DNA of 64,000 nt from an uncultured Micavibrio sp. (lineage in GTDB: Bacteria; Pseudomonadota; Alphaproteobacteria; Micavibrionales; UBA2020): NCBI GenBank assembly GCA_964575605.1, contig CAZNRN010000006.1, forward strand, positions 6,849-70,848, read 5' to 3'. Shown here in pieces: positions 2,466-39,871 of the stretch. The stretch's first letter is position 1, and each line of letters opens with the position of its first letter. Below the pieces are notes generated by a model. The model saw nothing but the letters and a program-made list of their open reading frames with translations. It searched no databases and was not told the origin of the DNA. Made by a program: the position numbers and the translations under genes.

Positions 2466-3256
2466 GCCGACAGGATTTCACACAAGCGGTCATGCAGCGG
2501 CCTGTCGCCGCAGGCGACAACCTCCTGCGATTCAAACGACAGGTCGAGGGGCAGGGGATTGCCCATCCAGTTGGTAATGACGCCGCCCGCGTTCTCGACG
2601 ATGGGGATGAGCGCGGCGTAGTCGTGCAGCTTCATATGCGCCTCCACCACGCCGTCCAGCCAGCCGCCCGCCAGCTGGCCGTAAGAATAGCAATCGCCGC
2701 CGTAGAGCGTGAAGCCGGTTTCTTCCTTCAGGTAGGTATAGAGTTTCAGGTAATCCTCGAACTCGAACATATCGGGGCCGGTGGTGCTGACATTGGCGCG
2801 GCTGATATCCTTGCAGGGGCGGCATTTCACCTGCTTGCCGTTGAGGGTAGTCCCGTGGCCGCGCGCGCCAATCCAGCGTTCCTTGTTAATCGGCTGGTCG
2901 AGCAGCCCCGCCACCGCCTCGCCCTCGTGCGCGAGGCCGATCAAGGTGCCGAACAACGGGCGTCCGGTCGCAAAGGCCTTGGTGCCGTCGATGGGGTCGA
3001 GTATCCAGACCCAGCCGGTCGAGCCCGCGTCGGAGCCGAATTCCTCGCCATGGATGCCGTCGCCCGCACGTTCCTTTTCAAGGATGGCGCGGATGGCCAG
3101 TTCGGCCTCTTTGTCGGCAATCGTCACTGGGCTGTCGTCCTGCTTGCCCTCGATATGAAAACCGGTGCGGAAGTATTTCGACACCACCCCCGCCGCGGCA
3201 TCGCCCAGGCGATGCATCAGGGACAGGATTTCGGGGGAAACGGGCGGCTTGGCCAT
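2462..3256 (-). CDS. hisN: Histidinol-phosphate phosphatase, inositol monophosphatase family
   Basis: SPVTIADKEAE, GEEFG, WILDPIDGTKAF, YGGDCYSYG, LHDYAA; start taken as ATG 3256 (MAKPP). Confidence 0.8.
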   Translation of the reverse strand: MAKPPVSPEILSLMHRLGDAAAGVVSKYFRTGFHIEGKQDDSPVTIADKEAELAIRAILEKERAGDGIHGEEFGSDAGSTGWVWILDPIDGTKAFATGRPLFGTLIGLAHEGEAVAGLLDQPINKERWIGARGHGTTLNGKQVKCRPCKDISRANVSTTGPDMFEFEDYLKLYTYLKEETGFTLYGGDCYSYGQLAGGWLDGVVEAHMKLHDYAALIPIVENAGGVITNWMGNPLPLDLSFESQEVVACGDRPLHDRLCEILSA

Positions 3257-3407
3257 GGTAAAACCTCTTAAAAACCCTATATTTTTATGAATAATTTGCG
3301 TCTCTCGCGCTAAAAGTATTATATTTGTTGGCGCCATAAAAGCAGAATTAAAAAATTAACAAGCTTGGCGTAAATTAAAACACGGCAAATTTCTAAAAGA
3401 GGGCACC

Positions 3408-6068
<2,661 letters not shown>

Positions 6069-6182: not shown

Positions 6183-8348
6183 ATGGCTGGTGATAAACTC
6201 ATCAAGGGTTGGAAGGCAGCGCAGACGGTCATAGCGCCGCGCGACGGTACAGCCGTGATCGATATCCATGGCCGCAGCATCCCCGATCCCTTCCGCCCGC
6301 TTGAAAACAAAAACACCTCCGCCGCCTGGGTCCGGGTGGAAGAAGAAAACTTTCAGGAGAGTGTTTCAGCGGAGGGGCAGGCCGCTTTCGTGCAGGCCGC
6401 CGCCGGTTTCCGTGACGAGGTGCAGAAGGGCGTGCCGGTCAAGGCCGGCGACAACTATCTTTTCTATTACCGCGGCAAAGGCGAGGCCCAGGCGCGCGTA
6501 ATGGTTTCCGACACGCCGGACGGCGAGGGCCGCACGCTCATCGACCCGCTCGCCATCGACCCTTCCGGCAAGACGGGTGTCGAAGCCTATCCCAGCCCCG
6601 ATGGAAAATATGTCGCCTGCCGCATCCGCCGCGCCGACATCTGGGAGTCGGAGGTGCGCGTCGTCGAGGTCGAAACAGGCAAGACCCTCGATGAAAAGTT
6701 CAAGGACGCCGGCACTATCGTCTGGGACAAGGACAGCAGGGGCTTCGCCTACAACTACCGCCCCGAACCCGGCAAAAGCGGCCGCGTCACCTATGGCCAC
6801 CATGTGCTGGGGCAGGATTGCGCCGCCGACAAACCGTATTACGACGCCACCACGCGCGAAGGCCCGACCGCCCAGCCCGGCTACGGTTTCCATTACAACC
6901 ACATGGCTTATGACGGGCCGCAGGAATGGGTTTACTGGGGCATGGCTGTCGGCACGCGCGACCTGAAGCCCGGCATCAGCATGAAATCGCCCGGCGACGA
7001 TTATTTCCGCGTGCTGGTCGAACCCGGCACGGCGGATGTCAGCCCGGTCGGCGACAACGGCAGCGGAAAAATCATCGCCTGGACGACCGAGGGGGCGGAA
7101 AAGGGCAGGGTCGTCCTGATCGACCCCGCAAATCCGGCGCCCGGAAACTGGCAAACGCTGATCCCCGCGCAGGACGACGCGCTCCAGCATGCTTTCGTGC
7201 ATGGCGGGCGCATCTACGGTGTTTACATGCACGACAGCGCCGACCGGCTCAGCGTTTTCAGCAAGCAGGGCGAACATATCACCGATGTCGACACCGGCCA
7301 TGCGCGCCTGATATTCGGGCATGCGCAAAACGCCGGCCTTGCGCTGGGCGGCAACCTGCCTGCGCAAGGGGGCGAACTGCTGTTCAGGGCGGAAACCTAT
7401 ACGGGCACGCCGCGCGTCATGGCCTATAACCCCGATGCCAACGCGGTCAGGCCGCTCGATCCCGGCATGGCGGGCCTGCAGCTGGACGGTTGCATAGTCG
7501 AGACGATCCACGCCACATCGCCCGACGGCACAAAAGTGCCGATCACGGTCATCCGCCGCGAAGGCGTGCAACTCGACGGCAGCGCGGCGCTTAAAATCAC
7601 CGGCTACGGCGGCACCGGATGCTCGCAGGGCCCGGGCAGCGATCCCGAAGTGATCGACTTCGTGAAGTCTGGCGGCATTTATGCCGTCGCCCATATCCGC
7701 GGCGGCAGCGAGCTCGGCAAGGCATGGCATGACGGCGGCCGCGGCGAAAACAAGGAAAACTGCATCGAGGATTTCAACGCCTGCGTAAGGCACCTCGTCG
7801 ATCAGCGCTACACCTCGCCGCAGCGCTTGGTGGCGCAGGGGTTCAGCCACGGCGGTTTCGTGGTGCTGGGCGCCATGGAGCGCGAACCCGCGCTTTACGG
7901 CGCGGTGATCGCCGGCTGCCCGCTGACCGACCAGCTGCTGCGCGACCGCACCGTCAGCAGCGACGAATTCGCCGACCCCTACGCCAGCCCGCGCAACCTC
8001 GACATCGCGCTGAAAACCTCGCCGCTGCACAACATCACGCCCGGCGCGAAATACCCGCCGGTGCTGGTGCATACCGCGGAAAACGATTTCCTTTACGCCC
8101 ATTCGCTGAAATTCGTGGCAGCGCTGCGCGCGCTCTGCCCGGACGTGAAAGCGCTGCTGCATGTCGAAAAAGGCTATGGCCATTCCATGGACCGCCCGCC
8201 CGAAATCGAGGCGGACGAGGGCGCAAAGCGCCGTGCCTTTGTCGAGCAGGCCATCGGGCCGATCGGGCAGGATGCCTGGCAGGCAACGCAAAAACCCGCC
8301 ACTGCGGGCAAGGTGACGGCGAAGGCCAAGCCCTCCCCCGCGCGTTAA
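6183..8348 (+). CDS. Divergent prolyl oligopeptidase-family (S9A) serine peptidase
   Basis: N-terminal IPDPFRPLE, beta-propeller region, HIRGGSELGKAWHDGGR, nucleophile GFSHGG, acid ENDF, His in KGYGHS. Confidence 0.85.
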   Translation: MAGDKLIKGWKAAQTVIAPRDGTAVIDIHGRSIPDPFRPLENKNTSAAWVRVEEENFQESVSAEGQAAFVQAAAGFRDEVQKGVPVKAGDNYLFYYRGKGEAQARVMVSDTPDGEGRTLIDPLAIDPSGKTGVEAYPSPDGKYVACRIRRADIWESEVRVVEVETGKTLDEKFKDAGTIVWDKDSRGFAYNYRPEPGKSGRVTYGHHVLGQDCAADKPYYDATTREGPTAQPGYGFHYNHMAYDGPQEWVYWGMAVGTRDLKPGISMKSPGDDYFRVLVEPGTADVSPVGDNGSGKIIAWTTEGAEKGRVVLIDPANPAPGNWQTLIPAQDDALQHAFVHGGRIYGVYMHDSADRLSVFSKQGEHITDVDTGHARLIFGHAQNAGLALGGNLPAQGGELLFRAETYTGTPRVMAYNPDANAVRPLDPGMAGLQLDGCIVETIHATSPDGTKVPITVIRREGVQLDGSAALKITGYGGTGCSQGPGSDPEVIDFVKSGGIYAVAHIRGGSELGKAWHDGGRGENKENCIEDFNACVRHLVDQRYTSPQRLVAQGFSHGGFVVLGAMEREPALYGAVIAGCPLTDQLLRDRTVSSDEFADPYASPRNLDIALKTSPLHNITPGAKYPPVLVHTAENDFLYAHSLKFVAALRALCPDVKALLHVEKGYGHSMDRPPEIEADEGAKRRAFVEQAIGPIGQDAWQATQKPATAGKVTAKAKPSPAR

Positions 8349-31038: not shown

Positions 31039-31518
31039 TTACTCCGCCAGCGCCGTACCCGAAAGCTGGTACAGCATCCCGTGCTCCCGCTCCGCGCGGG
31101 TTTTCAGCAGGCGCAACACCCCGCAGAGTGTCACCGCGCCTACCGCGTAATCGATTTTATCGACAGTGTCCGTCACCTCGATCATCTCGGCATAGCCGCC
31201 CGGCAGGCAGAAGGGGCAGGTCGGCTGGTAGGCGCTGAGGATGAAATGCGACTGGCTCTCCGCGCCCTGCAGCGGGAACATATAGCCGGTGATGCAGATT
31301 TTCTTGCCCGCCGCCGCCTGCGCCTCGGCGGTAAAGCTGGCTTCGCCGTCCTTGACTTTCGCCGCCGCCAGCACGGGCCAGCTGATGGTATCTTTCACCC
31401 CCGCCGCCGGATGGCTGCGGTTGACAAGGTCGCGCACGCCCAGCACGAAGATCAGGGCCAGGAAAACAACGGGCAGCGCGCCCTTCAGGGTCATGCGGTT
31501 CTTTGCGGGTGCGCTCAT
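31039..31518 (-). CDS. DUF3299-like protein (ZrgD/PA4066-like)
   Basis: N-terminal anchor; ISWPVL, ITGYMFPL, HFILSAYQPTCPFC, VTLCGVL. Confidence 0.72.
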   Translation of the reverse strand: MSAPAKNRMTLKGALPVVFLALIFVLGVRDLVNRSHPAAGVKDTISWPVLAAAKVKDGEASFTAEAQAAAGKKICITGYMFPLQGAESQSHFILSAYQPTCPFCLPGGYAEMIEVTDTVDKIDYAVGAVTLCGVLRLLKTRAEREHGMLYQLSGTALAE

Positions 31519-32090
31519 TTCCCTGCCTCCACCGCGTCCTTCAACCGGTAAAAAGTGCTGTTCTCGCGGTCTTCCACCACCAGTTCCAGCTTGCCTTTCA
31601 GCGTCACGGGGTCGTAGGAGAAAGCGACCGGCTTTTTGTCCGCATGCACCTCCAGCACCAGCGACGGCGCGACGTGGTAATGGAAGGGGCAGCCGACAGG
31701 GAAGGGGCCCAGCAAAAATTCCTTCTGCTTTTCCTCCGCCCCCAGCGGGAACATGAAACCCTTGATGGTCACTTCCTTGCCGTCAAGCGCCTTTACCTCC
31801 TCGGTAAAGCCCGGCTTGAAATACTGGAAGTCATAGCCATCCTTGTCCTTGCCCTCGACGTTCTTTTCCTTCGTCGCGCCAAGCACCCGCCAGTCGAGCG
31901 CGCCTTTTGGCGTGTCGACATAGTTCTTGGCAAGGTCCTTCAGCGACATGTTGCCGCCGCTGAGGTCGATGGTGCCAAGGTCGACCGTGCCGGTCACGGT
32001 CATGGTTTCGTACGTGTACTCCTCCTTTTTCAAGGCGAAGGCCGGCGTGGCGCAGCAAAGCAGCAGTAAGGCAAAAACAACCTGTTTCAT
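31515..32090 (-). CDS. DUF3299-like exported protein (second copy)
   Basis: Signal peptide; LDWRVL, ALDGKEVTIKGFMFPL, EFLLGPFPVGCPFHYH, PVTLKGKL. Confidence 0.8.
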   Translation of the reverse strand: MKQVVFALLLLCCATPAFALKKEEYTYETMTVTGTVDLGTIDLSGGNMSLKDLAKNYVDTPKGALDWRVLGATKEKNVEGKDKDGYDFQYFKPGFTEEVKALDGKEVTIKGFMFPLGAEEKQKEFLLGPFPVGCPFHYHVAPSLVLEVHADKKPVAFSYDPVTLKGKLELVVEDRENSTFYRLKDAVEAGK

Positions 32091-32100
32091 GGGCCCCCCT

Positions 32101-33468
32101 TTACCCTCGTCCCCTGGCCAGCAAGGCCGCAATATCGGTGCGCGCGGCGGACAGCGCGGGCACGACACCCGCGGTGATGCCGACGCCCGCGCCCAGCGCC
32201 AGCAGCAGGGCGTCCAGCGACGAAAGCTGCAGCAGCGTGGCAGGCAGGACGATGCCGCGCAGGCTTTCCACCTGCACCGCGACCGTATAGGCCGCAAGAT
32301 GGCCCAGCACGATCCCGGCGGCCGTCCCCGCCAGCGACAGCGCCGCACCCTCGCACATCACCGTGGCGAAAAGCGCCGCAGGGGAGGCGCCCAGCACGCG
32401 CAGCACGCCAAGGTCATAGCGCCGCGCCGCCAGGCCCGAGGCCAGCGCCGAGAGCAGCATCAGCCCCGACAGCGCGATAAAGCCCAGGCCAAGCACGCCC
32501 AGCACATCGCGGCCCATGCCCATCATCGACGCCAGCCGTGCGACTTCGTAGGCGGGGCTTGCCGCCTGCAGGCCCGATTGCGCGTTGATCTGCCGTGGCA
32601 GGCTCATCACCGCCATGGGGCTCCTCGTCTTCAGCAGCAGCGCGGTGATTTGATGCTCCGGCGCCTCGCCTTCGTCATGATCATGATCGTGGTCTTCATG
32701 CGCATGGTCATCATCGCCGTCGTCATGGTGATGTTCCGCGGCTTCGTCGTGGTCATGGTCTTCATGGTCGTGGTCTTCATGCGCATGCTCGTCGTCGCCA
32801 TCCTCATGATGGTGGCCTTCCGCCTCCTCCTCGCCTTCATCCCCGTCATCATGGTGATGATGGTGGTGATGCAGCTCCTGGACGCTCTTGACCGATGTCA
32901 CGATCAGCCGGTCCAGCACAGTGCCGGTGGGCGCAAGGCGCCCGGTGATTTTATACAGGTGGTCCTTGTGGATATCGGTGCTTTCCGCCGACAACCCGTG
33001 CGCGCCCGCGAAACTGTCGCCGGTGTTCAGACCGGTCGCGGCGCCCGCCACGGCTTCGAAGGGGGCATCGAAAACCTTGCCCTCCGCCAGGCTGCCGCCC
33101 AGCAGGCTGATATATTCCGGCGTCGTGCCCGCAATGCGGAAACCGTGGTAATTGTCGCCCAGCGCCAGCGGGATCGCCTCTTTTACCTGCGGGTTATGCG
33201 CGATTTTATCGGCATCGTCGGCATGGATGTTACCGGTCGGCACATCGGCGTGGTAGATGGTCGACAACACCAGCTGCAGCGGGCTGCCTTTGGCGCCCAC
33301 CACGATGTCGATGCCCTCGGCGTTGCGCGCGAAACCGCGGTTCACCGATTGCGACAGCAGGAAAATGGCGCAGAGCAGCGCCACGCCCGCGGCCGCCGCC
33401 GCAAAGCAGAGGAAGGATTGCATCTTGCGCGTGCGGATGGACGCGATGGAAAGGGAAAGGGGGTTCAT
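32101..33468 (-). CDS. FtsX/MacB-like ABC permease (ZrgC/PA4065-like) with His-rich insert
   Basis: DIVVGAKGSPLQLVLSTIYH..PTGNI, AIPLALGDNYHGFRIAGT, C-terminal RRYDLGVLRVLGA + TM helices. Confidence 0.9.
   Translation of the reverse strand: MNPLSLSIASIRTRKMQSFLCFAAAAAGVALLCAIFLLSQSVNRGFARNAEGIDIVVGAKGSPLQLVLSTIYHADVPTGNIHADDADKIAHNPQVKEAIPLALGDNYHGFRIAGTTPEYISLLGGSLAEGKVFDAPFEAVAGAATGLNTGDSFAGAHGLSAESTDIHKDHLYKITGRLAPTGTVLDRLIVTSVKSVQELHHHHHHHDDGDEGEEEAEGHHHEDGDDEHAHEDHDHEDHDHDEAAEHHHDDGDDDHAHEDHDHDHDEGEAPEHQITALLLKTRSPMAVMSLPRQINAQSGLQAASPAYEVARLASMMGMGRDVLGVLGLGFIALSGLMLLSALASGLAARRYDLGVLRVLGASPAALFATVMCEGAALSLAGTAAGIVLGHLAAYTVAVQVESLRGIVLPATLLQLSSLDALLLALGAGVGITAGVVPALSAARTDIAALLARGRG
32653..32871 (-). 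repeat. His/Asp/Glu-rich coding tract (73 aa) with internal duplication
   Basis: HHHHHHHDDGDEG...HHHEDGDDEHAHEDHDH...HHHDDGDDDHAHEDHDH...EH. Confidence 0.92.
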
Positions 33469-34118
33469 GCGGCCTCGCTTGCCCGCCCGTCAAGGCGGAT
33501 GATGGTGGTGAAGTTTTTGGTGATGCGCGCGTCATGCGTGGCGACGACAAGCGCGGCCCTGGTGTCCTCGGCCTGCTGCGTCAGCAGCCGGATGACGGCC
33601 TCCGCATTGGCGTCGTCGAGCGCCGAGGTCGGCTCGTCCGCCACCAGCACTTTCGGGCGGTTCAGCACCGCGCGGGCGATGGCGCCGCGCTGCTGTTCGC
33701 CCTGGCTCAGGGCATCGGGCCTGCGGTGCGCCTTGGCGCCCAGGCCAAGGCTTTCCAGCAGCGCGTCGATGCGTTTTTCATCCCGCGGCGCGCCCGCCAT
33801 GTCGGCCGCCAGCGCGACATTCTGCCGCAGGCTGAGCGAGGGCAGCAGGTGCAGCGACTGGAATACGAAGCCGAAATTGCGCCCGCGCAATGTGTCGCGC
33901 GCGCGGGGCGGCAGGGCGTAAATATCGCTTCCCTCGAACAGCGCCTTGCCCGCGGCGGGCTGCAGCAGCCCCGCCATCACGGACAGCAAGGTGGTTTTGC
34001 CCGAGCCGGAAGGGCCCAGGATGGCAAGGCGTTCGCCCGCCTTGATCGTCAAATCAGGGAATTCAAGCGACGGCGCCGTGCCGCGCACGACGCGGATCCC
34101 GCGTGTTTCAAGAAGCAT
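33465..34118 (-). CDS. ABC ATP-binding protein (LolD/ZrgB-like)
   Basis: GPSGSGKTTLL, FVFQSLHL, LSQGEQQR, LVADEPT; ATGA overlap with the permease. Confidence 0.93.
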   Translation of the reverse strand: MLLETRGIRVVRGTAPSLEFPDLTIKAGERLAILGPSGSGKTTLLSVMAGLLQPAAGKALFEGSDIYALPPRARDTLRGRNFGFVFQSLHLLPSLSLRQNVALAADMAGAPRDEKRIDALLESLGLGAKAHRRPDALSQGEQQRGAIARAVLNRPKVLVADEPTSALDDANAEAVIRLLTQQAEDTRAALVVATHDARITKNFTTIIRLDGRASEAA

Positions 34119-34164
34119 GGCTGCTCCTCCTTCATATCGTTGCTAAAAAAAAGAAATCGGGGTT

Positions 34165-34482
34165 TTAGCAGACGGAAGGGGGGCCGGTGGAAAGATAGGG
34201 TTTTGCGCTGATGCCGCGCAGGGCGGTGGCGGCTGGCTGCGGGACGGGGACGTCGGGCAGCGGCGCGGCGGGCAGGGCGAGGGGCGCGGGCGCCGCAGCG
34301 GCGGCCAGGGCCTTGCCGGTCTGCGAAATGCCGCAATCGTCCTCGTGCTGGCCATGCGCCAGCTTGCTGAAAAGGTGCAGCGGCGCATGCTGGATCGCAA
34401 TAAACTGCGCCAGCAACAGCAGCGCCGCCAGCGCCAGCGCCGTCAAAATCCGCGATTCACGATGTGCCGCCTGTGTCGACAT
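34165..34482 (-). CDS. DUF2946/CruR-like leader protein (TM helix, His/Cys patch, Pro/Ala linker, C-terminal TGPP)
   Basis: ILTALALAALLLLAQFIAIQH-APLH...HGQHEDDC-Pro/Ala linker-KPYLSTGPPSVC; first gene of the metal-ABC operon. Confidence 0.65.
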   Translation of the reverse strand: MSTQAAHRESRILTALALAALLLLAQFIAIQHAPLHLFSKLAHGQHEDDCGISQTGKALAAAAAPAPLALPAAPLPDVPVPQPAATALRGISAKPYLSTGPPSVC

Positions 34483-34488
34483 GTCGCG

Positions 34489-34518
34489 ACTCTAGGCCTC
34501 CCGGGGCGATAGAGTCAA
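34489..34518 (-). promoter_or_regulatory. sigma70-like promoter giving a probably leaderless transcript, overlapped by a 7-bp inverted repeat
   Basis: Minus strand TTGACT-N18-TAGAGT-N6-ATG(34482); GACTCTA (34488-34494) / TAGAGTC (34510-34516). Confidence 0.5.
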
Positions 34519-34564
34519 GAAAGCCGCCATTTAGCGATTTACTCAAAGGCTACAAGCCTTTACG

Positions 34565-35737
34565 GTGACGCGCATGAAAATGTTTATCGTCATGATGGCC
34601 AGCTTTATGGCCGCGGTTGCCATCTCCATCGATGCCATGCTGCCGGCGCTCGATTATATCGGGCGCGACCTGGGCGTGACCGACCCAAACCACACGCAGT
34701 TTATCCTCGTGCTTATCTTCCTTGGCATGGCGGCGGGGCAGTTGATCTGCGGGCCGCTGTCGGATGCGGAGGGACGTAAAAGGGTTTTGTACGGCGGCCT
34801 CGCGGTTTATGCGGCGGGGGCGGTGGTCAGCCTTTTTGCGACCTCGATGCCGGTGATGCTGGCGGGGCGGCTGTTGCAGGGGTTGGGCGTCTCGGGGCCT
34901 TATGTCAGTGCCGTGGCGATCGTGCGCGACAAGTTCAGCGGCGCGGAAATGGCGCGCGTGATGTCGCTGGTGATGATGATCTTCGTGGCCGTGCCCGCCA
35001 TCGCGCCCGCGCTGGGGCAGGCGATTTTGTTCTATGCCTCGTGGCGTTATATTTTCGGCCTGCTGCTGCTGGTGGCGGTGGGGATGACGGTCTGGGTTTA
35101 CTTCGGGCTTGAAGAAACCTTGCCGCCTGAAAAGCGCATTCCCTTGCGCCTTAAAGACATCGGCGCGGGTTTTCGTGAAGTTTTATCGACGCGCGTGACG
35201 GCGGGATATATGGTCTGCATGGGCCTGGTGTTCGGCGGCTTTATCGGCTACCTGAACTCGACGCGCCAGATTTTCCAGGACATGTTCGGCACAGGGCCGA
35301 TGTTCAGCGCGTACTTCGGCGGCCTCGCGATTATCTTCGGCGCGTCGTCGCTTTTGAATTCGCGCATCGTCAAGAAGTTCGGCATGCGCAAATTGTGCCG
35401 TATGGCGGCGGTCGCTATTGCGGTGACCTCGGCGCTGTACCTTGTCTGGCTGTATACCATGGGGGCGGGGCTCTGGACGTTTGTGCTGTATGTTTCCGTG
35501 CCTTACTTTGCGATGGGGCTGATGTTCGGCAATTTGAATGCGATTGCGATGGAGCCCATGGGGCATATCGCGGGCATTGCCTCGGCGGTGACGGGGGCGG
35601 TGTCGTCCATCATTTCGCTCTGCATCGGCACCACCGTGGGGCAGATGTTCGACGGGACGCTGGTGCCGGTGACGCTGGGTTTTATGGGGGTCAGCCTTGC
35701 ATCGCTCCTGATGATGCGTATTGCGGATAAGAATTGA
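34565..35737 (+). CDS. Bcr/CflA-family MFS drug efflux transporter
   Basis: SIDAMLPAL, GPLSDAEGRKRVL, GRLLQG, AIVRDKFSG.EMARVMS, PAIAPALG; 12 TM helices. Confidence 0.92.
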   Translation: MTRMKMFIVMMASFMAAVAISIDAMLPALDYIGRDLGVTDPNHTQFILVLIFLGMAAGQLICGPLSDAEGRKRVLYGGLAVYAAGAVVSLFATSMPVMLAGRLLQGLGVSGPYVSAVAIVRDKFSGAEMARVMSLVMMIFVAVPAIAPALGQAILFYASWRYIFGLLLLVAVGMTVWVYFGLEETLPPEKRIPLRLKDIGAGFREVLSTRVTAGYMVCMGLVFGGFIGYLNSTRQIFQDMFGTGPMFSAYFGGLAIIFGASSLLNSRIVKKFGMRKLCRMAAVAIAVTSALYLVWLYTMGAGLWTFVLYVSVPYFAMGLMFGNLNAIAMEPMGHIAGIASAVTGAVSSIISLCIGTTVGQMFDGTLVPVTLGFMGVSLASLLMMRIADKN

Positions 35738-37450: not shown

Positions 37451-38605
37451 TCAATCAAGCGTCTGCCGGTACCGCTTCATCGCGATAAAGGTAATCACCA
37501 CCATAAACGCCAGCTGCGGCCAGAGGTGCGGCCATATCTGGATAAGGTCATTGCCCTTCAGCAATATGCCGCGCGAGATATTGATGAAATGCGTGGCCGG
37601 CAGCATATTGCCGATCCACTGCGCCCATTCCGGCATGCCGCGGAAGGGGAAGATAAAGCCAGAGAGCATGAAGGACGGCATCATCATCATCATCGAGGCC
37701 TGCAGCGCCTGCGCCTGGTTCTGCGCCGCCGCGGATAAGGTAAAGCCCAGCGCCATGTTGCAGGTGATGAACACGAACAACGCACCCGACAATAACCACA
37801 AGCTGCCCAATATCGGGATCGCGAACAGCAGTTTCGCCACCACCACGACGATAAAGGCCTGGATGTAGCCGATGATGACATAGGGCGCGATCTTGCCGAT
37901 CATCACCTCCAGCGGGCGGCAGGGCATGGCCAGCAGGTTTTCCATCGACCCGCGCTCGCGCTCCTTCGTCATCGTCATCGCCGTCATCATGATGCCCGTC
38001 ATGGTCAGCAGGATGGCAATCAGCCCGGGCACGATGTTGTAGCGCGTGAAGCCTTCCGGGTTGTACATGCGCTGCAAAATCACCTCGACCGGCGGGGCGG
38101 ATTGCTTCAGGTCTTCCGTCGCGCCCCTTAATTCCTGCCGCGCCACGCGGTCGATCGCGCCCGAGAGCGACGCCAGCGCGCCCGAGGTCGCGACAGGGTC
38201 GGTCGCGTCGGCCTGCACCAGAATCTTCGGCCTGTCGCCGCGCACCAGATCGCGGCCGAAATTTTCAGGTATGGTGATGATGAACTGCGCCCGCCCCGAA
38301 TGCACAAGGTCCATCGCCTCGGCCTCCGTCCGGGGTTCATAGGCGATGTGGAAATACGAGGTATTGTTCAGCCCCGCCACCACGCTGCGCGCGAAACTGC
38401 CGTGGTCCTGCACCAGCATCGCGGCGGGCAGGTGGCGTGGGTCGTTGTTCAGCGCATAGCCGAACAGCAGCAATTGCATCAAAGGCAGGACAACAATCAT
38501 GCGCAGCGTCATCCGGTCGCGCCGCAGCTGCGTGAATTCTTTCTTCAACACCGCATAGGTGCGGCGGAAGGAAAAGCGTTCGGCAGAGCCTTCGGGTTTA
38601 GGCAT
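37451..38605 (-). CDS. ABC-2 type permease (YbhS/YbhR-like)
   Basis: KEFTQLRRDR, QLLLFGYA, YNP, KERERGSMENLL..P, PSFMLSGFIFP. Confidence 0.92.
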   Translation of the reverse strand: MPKPEGSAERFSFRRTYAVLKKEFTQLRRDRMTLRMIVVLPLMQLLLFGYALNNDPRHLPAAMLVQDHGSFARSVVAGLNNTSYFHIAYEPRTEAEAMDLVHSGRAQFIITIPENFGRDLVRGDRPKILVQADATDPVATSGALASLSGAIDRVARQELRGATEDLKQSAPPVEVILQRMYNPEGFTRYNIVPGLIAILLTMTGIMMTAMTMTKERERGSMENLLAMPCRPLEVMIGKIAPYVIIGYIQAFIVVVVAKLLFAIPILGSLWLLSGALFVFITCNMALGFTLSAAAQNQAQALQASMMMMMPSFMLSGFIFPFRGMPEWAQWIGNMLPATHFINISRGILLKGNDLIQIWPHLWPQLAFMVVITFIAMKRYRQTLD

Positions 38606-38629
38606 TTAACACCCACCTTTCCCCAAGCG

Positions 38630-38735
38630 CCACCCCGCCGACGGGCGGGGTCCGGTGCGGCCGACAGGCCGCCTTAATGGCTGCCGTAAAAACGCAGCTG
38701 CGCTGCGTACCGGACCCCGCCCGTCGGCGGGGTGG
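38630..38735. repeat. REP/REPIN-like palindromic element, copy 1 (106 bp)
   Basis: Perfect 27-bp terminal inverted repeats (38630-38656 / 38709-38735), each itself an 8-bp hairpin. Confidence 0.88.
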
Positions 38736-38769
38736 TGTGTGAGGGGAGAGTGTGCGCAAAGGCCGAAAT

Positions 38770-39711
38770 TCACTTCCCGCCCTCCCCGACAAACGCATCC
38801 TTAGACCCCGCCATGTAATGGATGAACACATCCTCGAACGACGGCTCCGAGCGTTTCCACTGCATGTCGGCCTGCGCCATATAGGGCTGCAGCGCGGCCT
38901 CCAGCTTCGCTTCGTCCACGCCGCTCACGTGCAAACTGTCGCCGAACGGCGCGACGGTGGCGATCGCCGGGTCGTGTTCCAGTTTTTTCGCCAGCTCCAT
39001 CAGGCGCGGGCCTTTCACCACCCAGGTGTGCAGCCCTGCGCCCGACAGCACTTCCTTGATGGTGCCCTGCGTCACCAGCTTGCCGTAGGACATGTAAATG
39101 ATGGCGTGGCAGCGTTCGGCCTCGTCCATGTAATGCGTGCTGACCAGCACGGTAATCCCGCGCGCGGCCAGATGGTGGATCTCGTCCCAGAATTCGCGCC
39201 GCGCCTTGGGGTCGACGCCCGCGGTGGGTTCGTCCAGCAGCAGTAATTCCGGTTCGTGCAGGATGGATGCCGCAAGCGCAAGGCGCTGCTTCCACCCGCC
39301 CGACAACTGCCCCGCCAGCTGTTTCTGGCGGTTGGTCAGGCCAAGGCCGGCCAGCGTGTCGTCGACGCGCTGCTTGATGTTATCGAGGCCATACATCTCC
39401 GCCACGAAATTCAGGTTCTCGCGGATGCTGAGGTCCTCCCAATAGCTGAATTTCTGCGTCATGTAGCCGATGCGGCGCTTGATGGCCGCCGACTGCGTGC
39501 GGATATCGAAGCCGAGGCAGGTGCCTTCGCCCGCATCCGGCGTCAGAAGCCCGCAAATCATCCGCATCGTGGTCGTCTTGCCGGAACCGTTCGGCCCCAG
39601 GAACCCGTAAATCTTCCCCTTCGGCACGCGGATATCCACGCCGTCGACGGCCTTCTTGCCGTTGAAGGATTTTTTAAGGCCGCGGACGTCGATGGCGAAT
39701 TCTTCTGTCAT
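38770..39711 (-). CDS. ABC ATP-binding protein (YbhF/CcmA-like)
   Basis: GPNGSGKTT, YMTQKFS, LSGGWKQRL, LLDEPTAGVDP, VSTHYMDEAERC. Confidence 0.95.
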   Translation of the reverse strand: MTEEFAIDVRGLKKSFNGKKAVDGVDIRVPKGKIYGFLGPNGSGKTTTMRMICGLLTPDAGEGTCLGFDIRTQSAAIKRRIGYMTQKFSYWEDLSIRENLNFVAEMYGLDNIKQRVDDTLAGLGLTNRQKQLAGQLSGGWKQRLALAASILHEPELLLLDEPTAGVDPKARREFWDEIHHLAARGITVLVSTHYMDEAERCHAIIYMSYGKLVTQGTIKEVLSGAGLHTWVVKGPRLMELAKKLEHDPAIATVAPFGDSLHVSGVDEAKLEAALQPYMAQADMQWKRSEPSFEDVFIHYMAGSKDAFVGEGGK

Positions 39712-39732
39712 GTGCAATTCTTGCCATCAATA

Positions 39733-39838
39733 CCACCCCGCCGACGGGCGGGGTCCGGTACGCAGCGCAGCTGCGTTTTTTCGTCAGCCATTAAGGCGGC
39801 CTTTCGGCCGCACCGGATGCCGCCCGTCGGCGGCATGG
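39733..39838. repeat. REP/REPIN-like palindromic element, copy 2 (inverted relative to copy 1)
   Basis: 99/106 positions identical to the reverse complement of 38630-38735 by manual alignment. Confidence 0.88.
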
Positions 39839-39871
39839 CGCAGGGTGAGAGTGATGTGCTCAAAGCCACAC

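Follow-up and report, generated by a model that had tools for sequence, protein, structure and literature searches.

A diverged CutF/CruR-like upstream open reading frame, a candidate nascent-chain metal sensor, heads a split MacB-type ABC transporter operon in an uncultured Micavibrio

Nascent-peptide metal sensors such as CruR and CutF were discovered only recently, and nearly all links drawn for them are to copper. CruR (Bp2923) of Bordetella pertussis is a DUF2946 protein with 45 residues between its Cys motif and its xxPP motif, and a 5-residue insertion in this spacer breaks regulation (PMC9426467); it arrests with two Pro codons in the ribosomal P and A sites (PMC12992588). The Arg of RAPP/RGPP motifs is critical, since its replacement abolishes arrest in ApdP, SecM, CruR (R139A) and seven peptides of Streptomyces lividans, and an AAPP version of ApcA is likewise arrest-defective (PMC12992588). 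CutF of Rhodobacter capsulatus cannot be detected in vivo and functions solely in cis, and its Pro-rich end, which responds to elongation factor P (EF-P), does not arrest strongly by itself (bioRxiv 2025.02.05.636593; Ozturk et al. 2021, 2023); a chaperone role for CutF and a protein-interaction role for its Pro-rich end had first been proposed by Ozturk et al. (2021). CutF-like clusters 14 and 17 are His-only and lie upstream of HupE/UreJ (Ozturk et al. 2023), and a DUF2946 gene with a Zur box heads czrCBA in Caulobacter. Among transporters, the ZrgABCDE operon of Vibrio and the PA4063-PA4066 operon of P. aeruginosa are Zur-regulated, and their function is disputed between zinc import and MacB-type export of pyochelin-cobalt (PMC11481552); zrgD (VP_RS01475), the first gene of the Zur-regulated zrg operon of Vibrio parahaemolyticus, encodes a DUF2607 protein (PMC9817125). 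Here we analyze a 64,000-nucleotide (nt) stretch of DNA from an uncultured Micavibrio sp. (assembly GCA_964575605.1, contig CAZNRN010000006.1, positions 6,849 to 70,848; hereafter, the window), in which a 105-residue open reading frame (ORF) precedes the genes of a split MacB-type ATP-binding cassette (ABC) transporter with DUF3299 proteins. We find that this ORF belongs to a conserved family of upstream ORFs, and we propose that it may be a CutF/CruR-like, cis-acting nascent-chain metal sensor at the head of a probably leaderless operon, a proposal that we regard as evenly poised between right and wrong.

The ORF begins with an ATG at 34482 and ends with a TAA at 34167-34165 on the minus strand (34165..34482), as do all features of its operon and promoter described below, and its translation is MSTQAAHRESRILTALALAALLLLAQFIAIQHAPLHLFSKLAHGQHEDDCGISQTGKALAAAAAPAPLALPAAPLPDVPVPQPAATALRGISAKPYLSTGPPSVC*. 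An in-frame TAG lies four codons 5' of this ATG, inside the -10 hexamer of the promoter, with no intervening start codon, so that the ATG is the sole possible start and a longer N-terminus is excluded. The G+C fraction at third codon positions (GC3) is 0.80 in frame, compared with 0.73 and 0.55 in the other frames and 0.84 in the ATPase gene that follows, and the ORF has been called as a gene in three independent assemblies. Among the 472 six-frame ORFs of at least 40 residues in the window, it alone has 60-160 residues, an N-terminal hydrophobic helix and PP within its last eight residues.

An earlier note on this DNA had listed a helix, a ligand patch, a Pro/Ala linker and a TGPP motif for this product, and each of these is present. 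The hydrophobic helix (residues 12-30, 34393..34449) follows a basic N-terminal segment with R8 and R11, has a mean Kyte-Doolittle value over 19 residues (KD19) of 2.61 and is a predicted N-in signal anchor or uncleaved signal peptide. Next come a candidate metal-ligand patch, drawn from conservation (residues 32-50, 34333..34389: H32-x3-H36, H43-x2-H46 and E47-D48-D49-C50), a 45-residue Ala/Pro-rich spacer (residues 54-98, 34189..34323), delimited by spacing counts and alignment and with a predicted local distance difference test score (pLDDT) of about 50-65, and T99-G100-P101-P102 (34177..34188). This last motif occupies the position of RAPP in relatives and is followed by SVC and the stop codon, giving the C-terminus Y96-L-S-T-G-P-P-S-V-C105. 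The patch holds the four His and single Cys described in the earlier note, which had overlooked H7, a fifth His on the cytoplasmic side of the helix, and C105, the last residue and a second Cys. The sole confident element of an AlphaFold model made from a 19-sequence alignment is a helix at residues 3-39 (pLDDT 80-89); the last 35 residues score near 50, and the C-terminal half has no confident fold.

A word-indexed search of 5.8 billion proteins returned the ORF itself as its sole match, and exhaustive phmmer against 1.84 billion representatives found one homologue, P0122 (106 residues, E 9e-9, 37% identity over residues 1-103). P0122 shares the N-terminal helix and H-x3-H with the window ORF, has CGIC at the position of CGIS, and ends in F-Y-S-T-G-P-P-G-T-A-Y; its gene lies in a more AT-rich genome, 40 nt 5' of an ABC ATPase gene and divergent from a DUF3299 gene. 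We collected 80 loci related via the permease, with a permease alignment as query (numbered with the prefix L), and inspected the region 5' of each ATPase gene. An ORF of 100-132 residues with the same layout lies upstream of the ATPase in 5 of the 14 closest operons (ATPase identity 54-67%) and is absent from the other nine. A profile of the syntenic upstream ORFs found 17 further database proteins, and every one whose contig was inspected is encoded directly 5' of ATPase-permease(-DUF3299) genes. With the alignment of a clade of 100-residue members as query, four genomes were found; a single metagenome scan for relatives gave no useful match. In total, 13 distinct loci have a family member directly 5' of the orthologous ATPase (L007, L008, L010, L011/L090, L017/L088, L085, L086/L087, L089 and L093-L097), and the pairing with an ABC operon rather than a TonB receptor, which the earlier note had remarked on, recurs in all 13.

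We then scored the ORF with a hidden Markov model (HMM) built from 19 syntenic family proteins, the window ORF and P0122 being excluded. The window ORF scored 30.0 bits over model positions 7-99 of 101 and P0122 scored 40.0 bits, while the best of 500 shuffles of each reached 6.9 and 8.4 bits, respectively. Because this comparison is not circular and the scores lie far above those of shuffles, the window ORF is a real, conserved gene and a member of the syntenic upstream-ORF family. M1, L23, Q26, H32, H36, C50, P101 and P102 are invariant across 19 members and D48 is nearly so, and an aromatic residue lies at position -5 from the first Pro in most members. The C-terminus is [YF]-x-A-R-A-P-P plus two or three residues in most relatives and [YF]-x-S-T-G-P-P plus three or four in the window ORF and P0122. 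Between the Cys motif and the xxPP motif, each taken as four residues, lie 45 residues in the window ORF and 43-44 in 19 of 20 relatives for which this spacing was counted. In the 100-residue clade, too, the Cys is single (DDCPVAF). A plasmid tblastn led to 'hypothetical proteins' encoded upstream in Polymorphobacter and Paracoccus, which on inspection look thioredoxin-like and DUF3299-like and were rejected as members.

Several loci of distant relatives in other phyla have a comparable ORF (CxxC followed by RAPP, RSPP or RGPP) 3' of the DUF3299 gene, where it heads other genes. Three of these loci were checked with Pfam: the genes headed are an unassigned 467-residue ORF and then ZnuA in L036, a TonB receptor in L073 and a CobW GTPase in L071. 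ORFs of this kind were seen in L053 (5932-6273), L036 (6072-6416), L077 (1943-2437), L073 (6086-6439), L071 (5811-6155) and L027 (6769-7056). It seems that DUF2946-like peptides recur in zinc-type loci. Since it is missing from 9 of the 14 closest operons and heads other genes elsewhere, the ORF looks like a movable head-of-operon module and not a fixed transporter subunit.

The family is related to DUF2946. PF11162 is the top family for the syntenic ORFs of L010, L017, L008 and L011 (E 0.001-0.01, 17-20 bits), 18 of 21 family members match it at E<=1 (best, 4e-5), and the displayed PF11162 alignments extend to the last profile position, where RAPP lies. None of the members carries a precomputed Pfam label or a name in the public databases, and the family is therefore invisible to standard annotation. 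The window ORF, moreover, conforms to all the CutF-like rules of Ozturk et al. (2023): it has fewer than 150 residues (105), PP in the last 15 (positions 101-102), a predicted N-terminal export signal in the form of its hydrophobic N-terminus, a same-strand gene within 1000 nt (the ATPase, 46 nt downstream) and a Cys/His motif (the His4-Cys patch). It heads its operon, with a promoter directly 5' and four same-strand genes 3'; an N-terminal signal or N-in transmembrane segment is predicted from R8, R11, the hydrophobicity value and the AlphaFold helix; and PP stands at the expected position, three residues before the stop, in a motif that reads TGPP and is neither RAPP nor RGPP. Our reading is that the ORF represents a diverged subfamily of the CutF/CruR-like class that fails strict definitions by Pfam membership, CxxC and RAPP. 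The DUF2946/CruR layout proposed by the earlier note therefore holds as a family relationship, through the leave-out HMM, the PF11162 matches of relatives and the 45-residue spacing; it does not extend to CxxC, RAPP or the Pfam threshold.

The promoter is conserved together with the ORF. In a promoter scan of 33900-34800 we found one sigma-70-like site, TTGACT-N18-TAGAGT (34518..34489), compared with 0.2 expected in shuffles. Its -35 hexamer, TTGACT (34513..34518), is invariant in 10 aligned loci from three clades, and its -10 hexamer, TAGAGT (34489..34494), lies inside the conserved GAGGCCTAG; TTGACT and GA(G/A)GCCTA(G/A) are invariant across the window, L085 and eight loci of the 100-residue clade, whose proteins are only about 25% identical. 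The -10 hexamer is 6 nt from the ATG in the window and 6-7 nt from it in 9 of the 10 loci (TTGACT-N17/18-TAGxxT), L085 being the exception, with a 22-nt insertion and a GGGG five nt before its ATG. A GGGAGG 5' of the window ATG is 14 nt distant, within the promoter spacer. Given the short gap and the distance of the GGGAGG, a leaderless transcript is the best reading: the operon mRNA probably starts at or beside the A of the ATG, and comparison thus supports the start that the earlier note had placed there, as deduced from the position of the promoter. The same note had seen no Zur-like box, and we found none near the promoter: the pattern TGTTATNNNATAACA, an alphaproteobacterial consensus that may not be that of this lineage, gave eight window matches at up to three mismatches, none of them in 34119-34640 and in total no more than chance. 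Rfam likewise gave no riboswitch or known leader in 33800-34800, and only one tRNA in the whole window.

Two inverted repeats lie in this region. One, a perfect 7-bp repeat, GACTCTA-N15-TAGAGTC (34488-34516), extends over the -35 and -10 hexamers and may be due to chance; a MerR-type operator at this site was considered and rejected, because the half-site spacing is wrong and the repeat is not conserved in L085. The other, AAAGGCT-N3-AGCCTTT (34545-34561), also perfect, lies between a divergent major facilitator superfamily (MFS) transporter gene and the operon promoter, and could be an operator or a hairpin in the 5' untranslated region of the MFS gene; it is absent from L085.

We propose the following mechanism for the ORF. 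A 70S ribosome would start at the 5'-terminal AUG, and the N-terminal helix would target the nascent chain to the membrane in an N-in orientation. The H32/H36/H43/H46/D48/C50 patch would be periplasmic at about the time at which the ribosome decodes G100-P101-P102, 45 residues on, and there, three codons before the stop, translation would pause. The paused ribosome would cover the stop-codon hairpin as well as the codons paired to the 5' half of the Shine-Dalgarno (SD) sequence of the ATPase gene, and would separate the C-rich 3' part of the ORF from the genes downstream; the pause would favor initiation at the ATPase gene and continued transcription of the ATPase-permease-DUF3299 genes. Metal occupancy of the periplasmic patch would set the length of the pause. 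We commit to a direction in which the metal-free peptide would pause longer (operon on) and metal would release the pause (operon off), which is the logic of CruR and fits a transporter family found in zinc-starvation loci elsewhere.

The RNA between the ORF and the ATPase gene offers structures on which such a pause could act. The SD sequence of the ATPase gene, GAAGGAGGAG (34133-34124), lies 5' of its ATG at 34118. In both the minimum free energy (MFE) and the centroid folds, a hairpin, UGCUAAAA/14-nt loop/UUUUAGCA (34141..34170), forms at the ORF stop codon, with the stem arms TGCTAAAA (34170-34163) and TTTTAGCA (34148-34141). In an outer helix (34129..34179), CCUUCCGU, from the P102-S103-V104 codons (34179-34172), pairs with ACG (34140-34138) and GAAGG (34133-34129), so that the 5' half of the SD sequence, GAAGG, is paired to CCUUC of the P102-S103 codons. 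A third structure, the hairpin AGGAGCA/GCCA/UGCUUCU (34111..34128), hides the 3' half of the SD sequence and the ATPase start codon (codons 1-3), and L085 has the same SD-start hairpin with AGAGGCA. A partition-function model gives the ATPase SD sequence an unpaired probability of 0.03; in controls with the upstream sequence shuffled the mean was 0.18, and 8% were as low as observed. In the consensus structure of the 100-residue clade, the last sense codons (UACUCC) pair with the SD sequence (GGAGUA) and enclose a conserved UUUCAG/CUGAAA hairpin right after the stop codon, and stall-model accessibility rises clearly in five of eight loci. In addition, the mRNA at 34137..34302 (ORF nt 180-345) is C-rich and G-poor (C up to 0.60, C/G 1.9-3.7), with a rut-like composition, and a similar but shorter tract is found in L087. 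This composition resembles that of a Rho loading site, and a CruR-type output is thus possible.

A number of observations weigh against the sensor proposal. Scans of the ORF with Pfam and NCBIfam gave no family at E<=1, so the HMM search against DUF2946 that the earlier note had suggested as a check fails for the ORF itself, and all relatives stay under the PF11162 gathering score of 23.7 bits. The CxxC of the class is reduced to one Cys in C50-G-I-S53, and a low-complexity Ala/Pro run stands where relatives have a second hydrophobic segment. At the RNA level, the local fold does not exceed shuffled sequences in stability (z = -0.33), the SD-sequestering helix of the 100-residue clade is conserved with no compensatory base changes seen, and a ribosome placed on PP raises the modelled SD accessibility of the window from 0.03 to 0.12 only. 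This rise is small because the 3' half of the SD sequence pairs with the ATPase start region, beyond the reach of the ribosome, and we therefore do not claim the CutF mechanism as shown. The stem overlapping the stop codon before the ATPase ribosome-binding site (RBS), to which the earlier note had pointed, is present in the MFE fold; it is not unusually stable and does not cover the RBS. The sequencing runs that carry the window sequence are bioreactor metagenome DNA only, with no RNA runs among them. Both the direction of control and the metal are drawn purely by analogy, and for the metal a distant relative of the transporter points elsewhere: in L099, a Paracoccus liaowanqingii plasmid, it is encoded as a DUF3299-like gene, an ATPase and an FtsX permease gene with a gene for the copper chaperone PCu(A)C (2661-5584), a hint that some family members may deal with copper.

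The arrest motif is a further point against the proposal, since the position two residues before PP is Thr99 in the window ORF. With the Arg absent, CruR/RAPP-like arrest, which the earlier note had assigned to TGPP, cannot be assumed, given the essential Arg of ApdP, SecM, CruR and the S. lividans peptides. A weaker, polyproline-type pause at TGPP is possible by analogy, because the end of CutF is itself not a strong autonomous arrest sequence and is EF-P-responsive. STGPP is common to the window ORF and P0122, its only close homologue, and this argues that the motif is under selection, because it and its distances to the Cys and to the stop are kept at only 37% identity; selection of this kind does not reveal the function.

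Among the alternatives, the one that survives best is that the ORF encodes a stable small bitopic membrane protein, a periplasmic metal chaperone or accessory subunit that would fill the ZrgA/PA4063 or ZrgD slot, with PP as a protein-interaction motif. Its place as first gene is that of zrgD (DUF2607) and zrgA (DUF2796) in the V. parahaemolyticus operon, its His, Cys and Asp ligands are conserved, and two hydrophobic segments, as in a small membrane protein, occur in most relatives; TGPP without the arrest-critical Arg and the chaperone and protein-interaction proposal of Ozturk et al. (2021) for CutF also fit. However, a subunit is hard to reconcile with the absence of the ORF from nine of the 14 closest transporter operons and with similar ORFs that head unrelated genes elsewhere. 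Moreover, a PP fixed 2-4 residues from the stop and 43-45 residues from the Cys is the hallmark of the regulatory family, no fold is predicted for the C-terminal half, and CutF is undetectable in vivo and active only in cis. We consider a stable protein unlikely.

A second alternative, which we also hold to be unlikely and slightly more so, keeps the same sensor and changes its output to Rho-dependent termination, as in CruR, in place of RBS unmasking. A ribosome that leaves fast would let Rho load on the C-rich ORF end and the intergenic RNA and terminate inside the poorly initiated ATPase gene, and a paused ribosome would block Rho. The C-rich, G-poor composition of ORF nt 180-345 and the shorter tract of L087 are consistent with this, and uncoupled downstream RNA is expected where most of the ATPase SD sequence is hidden by a hairpin that the ORF ribosome does not reach. 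Yet the intergenic region has 46 nt and that of CruR 162 nt, the C-rich tract consists simply of Ala and Pro codons and is absent in the closest homologue, that of L085, and Rho sites are not reliably predictable from composition.

It is rather improbable, in our judgment, that the ORF is a decayed family member with neither sensing nor arrest, a translated leader that would give constitutive translational coupling to the ATPase. The R-to-T, A-to-G and CxxC-to-CxxS changes, the replacement of a hydrophobic segment by a low-complexity Ala/Pro run, the lack of any remaining Pfam signal and the very small lineage, with one homologue among 1.84 billion representatives, would all suit decay. Against this, both clade members keep STGPP, the aromatic residue at -5, H32, H36, D48 and C50 at 37% overall identity, as well as a spacing of 44-45 residues, and the extra H43 and H46 that flank the Cys look like a changed ligand set and not like loss. 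Finally, a chance open frame, to which the 61% G+C of the window with its abundant long spurious ORFs and the lack of a database name or Pfam match might have pointed, has next to no likelihood left and is refuted by homology and synteny: the homologue at E 9e-9 in a more AT-rich genome, the 30 bits of the leave-out HMM, the coding-type GC3, the conserved promoter and position, and the gene call in three assemblies.

The operon that the proposed sensor would control contains four further genes, with gaps of 46, -4, 10 and -4 nt along it. They encode an ABC ATPase of 217 residues (33465..34118; PF00005, E 3.7e-35), an FtsX/MacB-type permease of 455 residues (32101..33468), a DUF3299 protein of 191 residues (31515..32090; PF11736, 30.7 bits) and a second DUF3299-like protein of 159 residues (31039..31518; PF11736, 16.3 bits, below threshold), whose gene has the same position in L005, L006 and L098. 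The permease matches PF02687 with 45.3 bits, above the 25.5-bit cut-off, and PF12704 (MacB_PCD) with 26.7 bits, just below the 27-bit cut-off. In a PDB sequence search, the 191-residue DUF3299 protein had one weak match, 4hsp (E 0.08), and the second DUF3299-like protein had none. A His/Asp/Glu-rich insert of about 70 residues, HHHHHHHDDGDEGEEE...HEDHDHDHDEGE (32653-32871, residues ~200-272), precedes the second membrane segment of the permease and accounts for its 455 residues, compared with 401 in most relatives; relatives have a shorter His-containing stretch at this position. Compared via published descriptions, this is the architecture of ZrgABCDE and PA4063-PA4066, with a separate ABC ATPase, an FtsX/MacB-type permease and DUF3299 proteins; no ZrgA/PA4063 (DUF2796) gene lies between 31039 and 34565.

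By analogy, zinc is the most likely metal, because Fur-family, CobW and ZnuA genes neighbor related operons and because the look-alike operons are Zur-regulated. The Zn/Ni/Co sensing suggested by the earlier note is likewise a reading from genomic context. In more distant operons, the neighbors are CobW/COG0523 GTPase genes on the 5' side, or else ZnuA, TonB-receptor or MerC genes. In L005, the closest operon without the upstream ORF and a closely related Micavibrio locus, a Fur-family gene (6568-7002; PF01475, 55 bits) follows the two DUF3299 genes and may encode its Zur. MerC-domain proteins adjoin the ABC-DUF3299 operon in Bacteroidota and some Proteobacteria (L025 2833-3219, L026, L028, L037, L044 2875-3297 and L098 2347-2814); a Pfam match confirmed this identity for L025, and the L098 protein is annotated so. 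In Balneolaceae, a protein of 108-110 residues is encoded directly 5' of the ATPase (L034 3013-3342, L035 2310-2642, L071 3014-3340 and L074 3001-3333). It has no Pfam match; by eye it resembles a ribbon-helix-helix N-terminus with a C-terminal Cys/His cluster, and it may be a metal-responsive regulator. A weak match to DUF2607 (E 0.063) was obtained for one of the upstream-ORF proteins.

Elsewhere in the window, two copies of a GC-rich palindromic intergenic element of ~136 nt, with the core CCCCGCCGACGGGCGGGGTCCGGT, flank an ABC-2 ATPase gene (38770-39717), at 38601-38744 and 39732-39867. Each copy has a 30-39-nt inverted repeat and a 46-nt spacer and resembles repetitive extragenic palindromic (REP) or miniature inverted-repeat transposable (MITE) elements; the window holds no third copy.

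The locus and its 13 syntenic relatives place the peptide design of the copper sensors before a split MacB-type ABC transporter with DUF3299, with relatives in zinc-starvation contexts. Both hallmark motifs are altered in the window ORF, which has one Cys and additional His in place of CxxC, and TGPP in place of RAPP, and the 45-residue spacing and the distance to the stop are kept. Should the ORF prove to regulate, the class would extend beyond copper, the Arg of RAPP would be dispensable in some cases, and the disputed function of Zrg/PA4064-65-type transporters would become open to simple genetics; should it not, the ORF would illustrate the decay of such sensors. A bolder and more doubtful conjecture, which we put forward tentatively, is that [YF]-x-S-T-G-P-P arrests or pauses translation of a leaderless mRNA without the Arg, and that the ORF would be the first zinc-responsive, or non-copper, nascent-chain sensor for a MacB-type ABC transporter. 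If this were true, CutF/CruR-like upstream ORFs would form a general, unrecognized post-transcriptional layer of zinc-starvation loci, including those that head the unassigned ORF with ZnuA, the TonB-receptor and the CobW genes in other phyla, and possibly zrgD.

The class itself is already known. In the literature searched, we did not find descriptions of this subfamily, its link to a split MacB-type ABC/DUF3299 system, the leaderless arrangement or the Arg-less TGPP: the CruR paper does not mention ABC, FtsX, DUF3299 or zinc, and the neighbor classes and supplement text of Ozturk et al. (2023) contain no ABC, FtsX or DUF3299 neighbors. Like CruR, the window ORF has a Cys-containing metal motif exactly 45 residues before xxPP, PP three residues before the stop and C-rich RNA at the ORF end, and it would share the logic in which metal binding releases arrest and so shuts off a system needed at low metal. 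In contrast to CruR, it has no Pfam match, CGIS for CxxC and TGPP for RAPP; it has 105 and not 145 residues and an intergenic region of 46 and not 162 nt; and it stands before a split MacB-type ABC system with DUF3299 instead of a TonB receptor, in a zinc and not a copper context, on a probably leaderless mRNA.

With CutF the locus shares a short intergenic region in which the SD sequence of the next gene is base-paired, and a PP motif without an adjacent Arg, so that any stalling may be of the polyproline, EF-P-sensitive type. Unlike the window ORF, CutF has CxxxC and a cleavable Sec signal and controls a copper-induced multicopper oxidase, which is the opposite direction; furthermore, the stop-codon hairpin of the window itself leaves the SD sequence uncovered, and the modelled unmasking is small. 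The RAPP/RGPP peptides (ApdA, ApdP and the SecM-type RAGP; PMC10951233, PMC12992588) resemble the ORF in a Gly-Pro-Pro near the C-terminus of a small membrane-targeted protein with a same-strand gene downstream, whereas their Arg is essential in every tested case and is Thr in the window ORF, whose Arg-less xGPP would be a candidate arrest motif at most. The Zrg/PA4063-66 systems match the operon in ATPase, permease and DUF3299 proteins and, in V. parahaemolyticus, in a small function-unassigned first gene (zrgD, DUF2607); they differ in their DUF2796 gene and Zur box, neither of which was found at this operon, and the transporters are likened by description. Clusters 14 and 17 of the CutF-like proteins indicate that the class can have His-based sites ahead of non-copper (Ni/Co) transport genes, as proposed here, although their downstream family is another one and the window ORF retains one invariant Cys.

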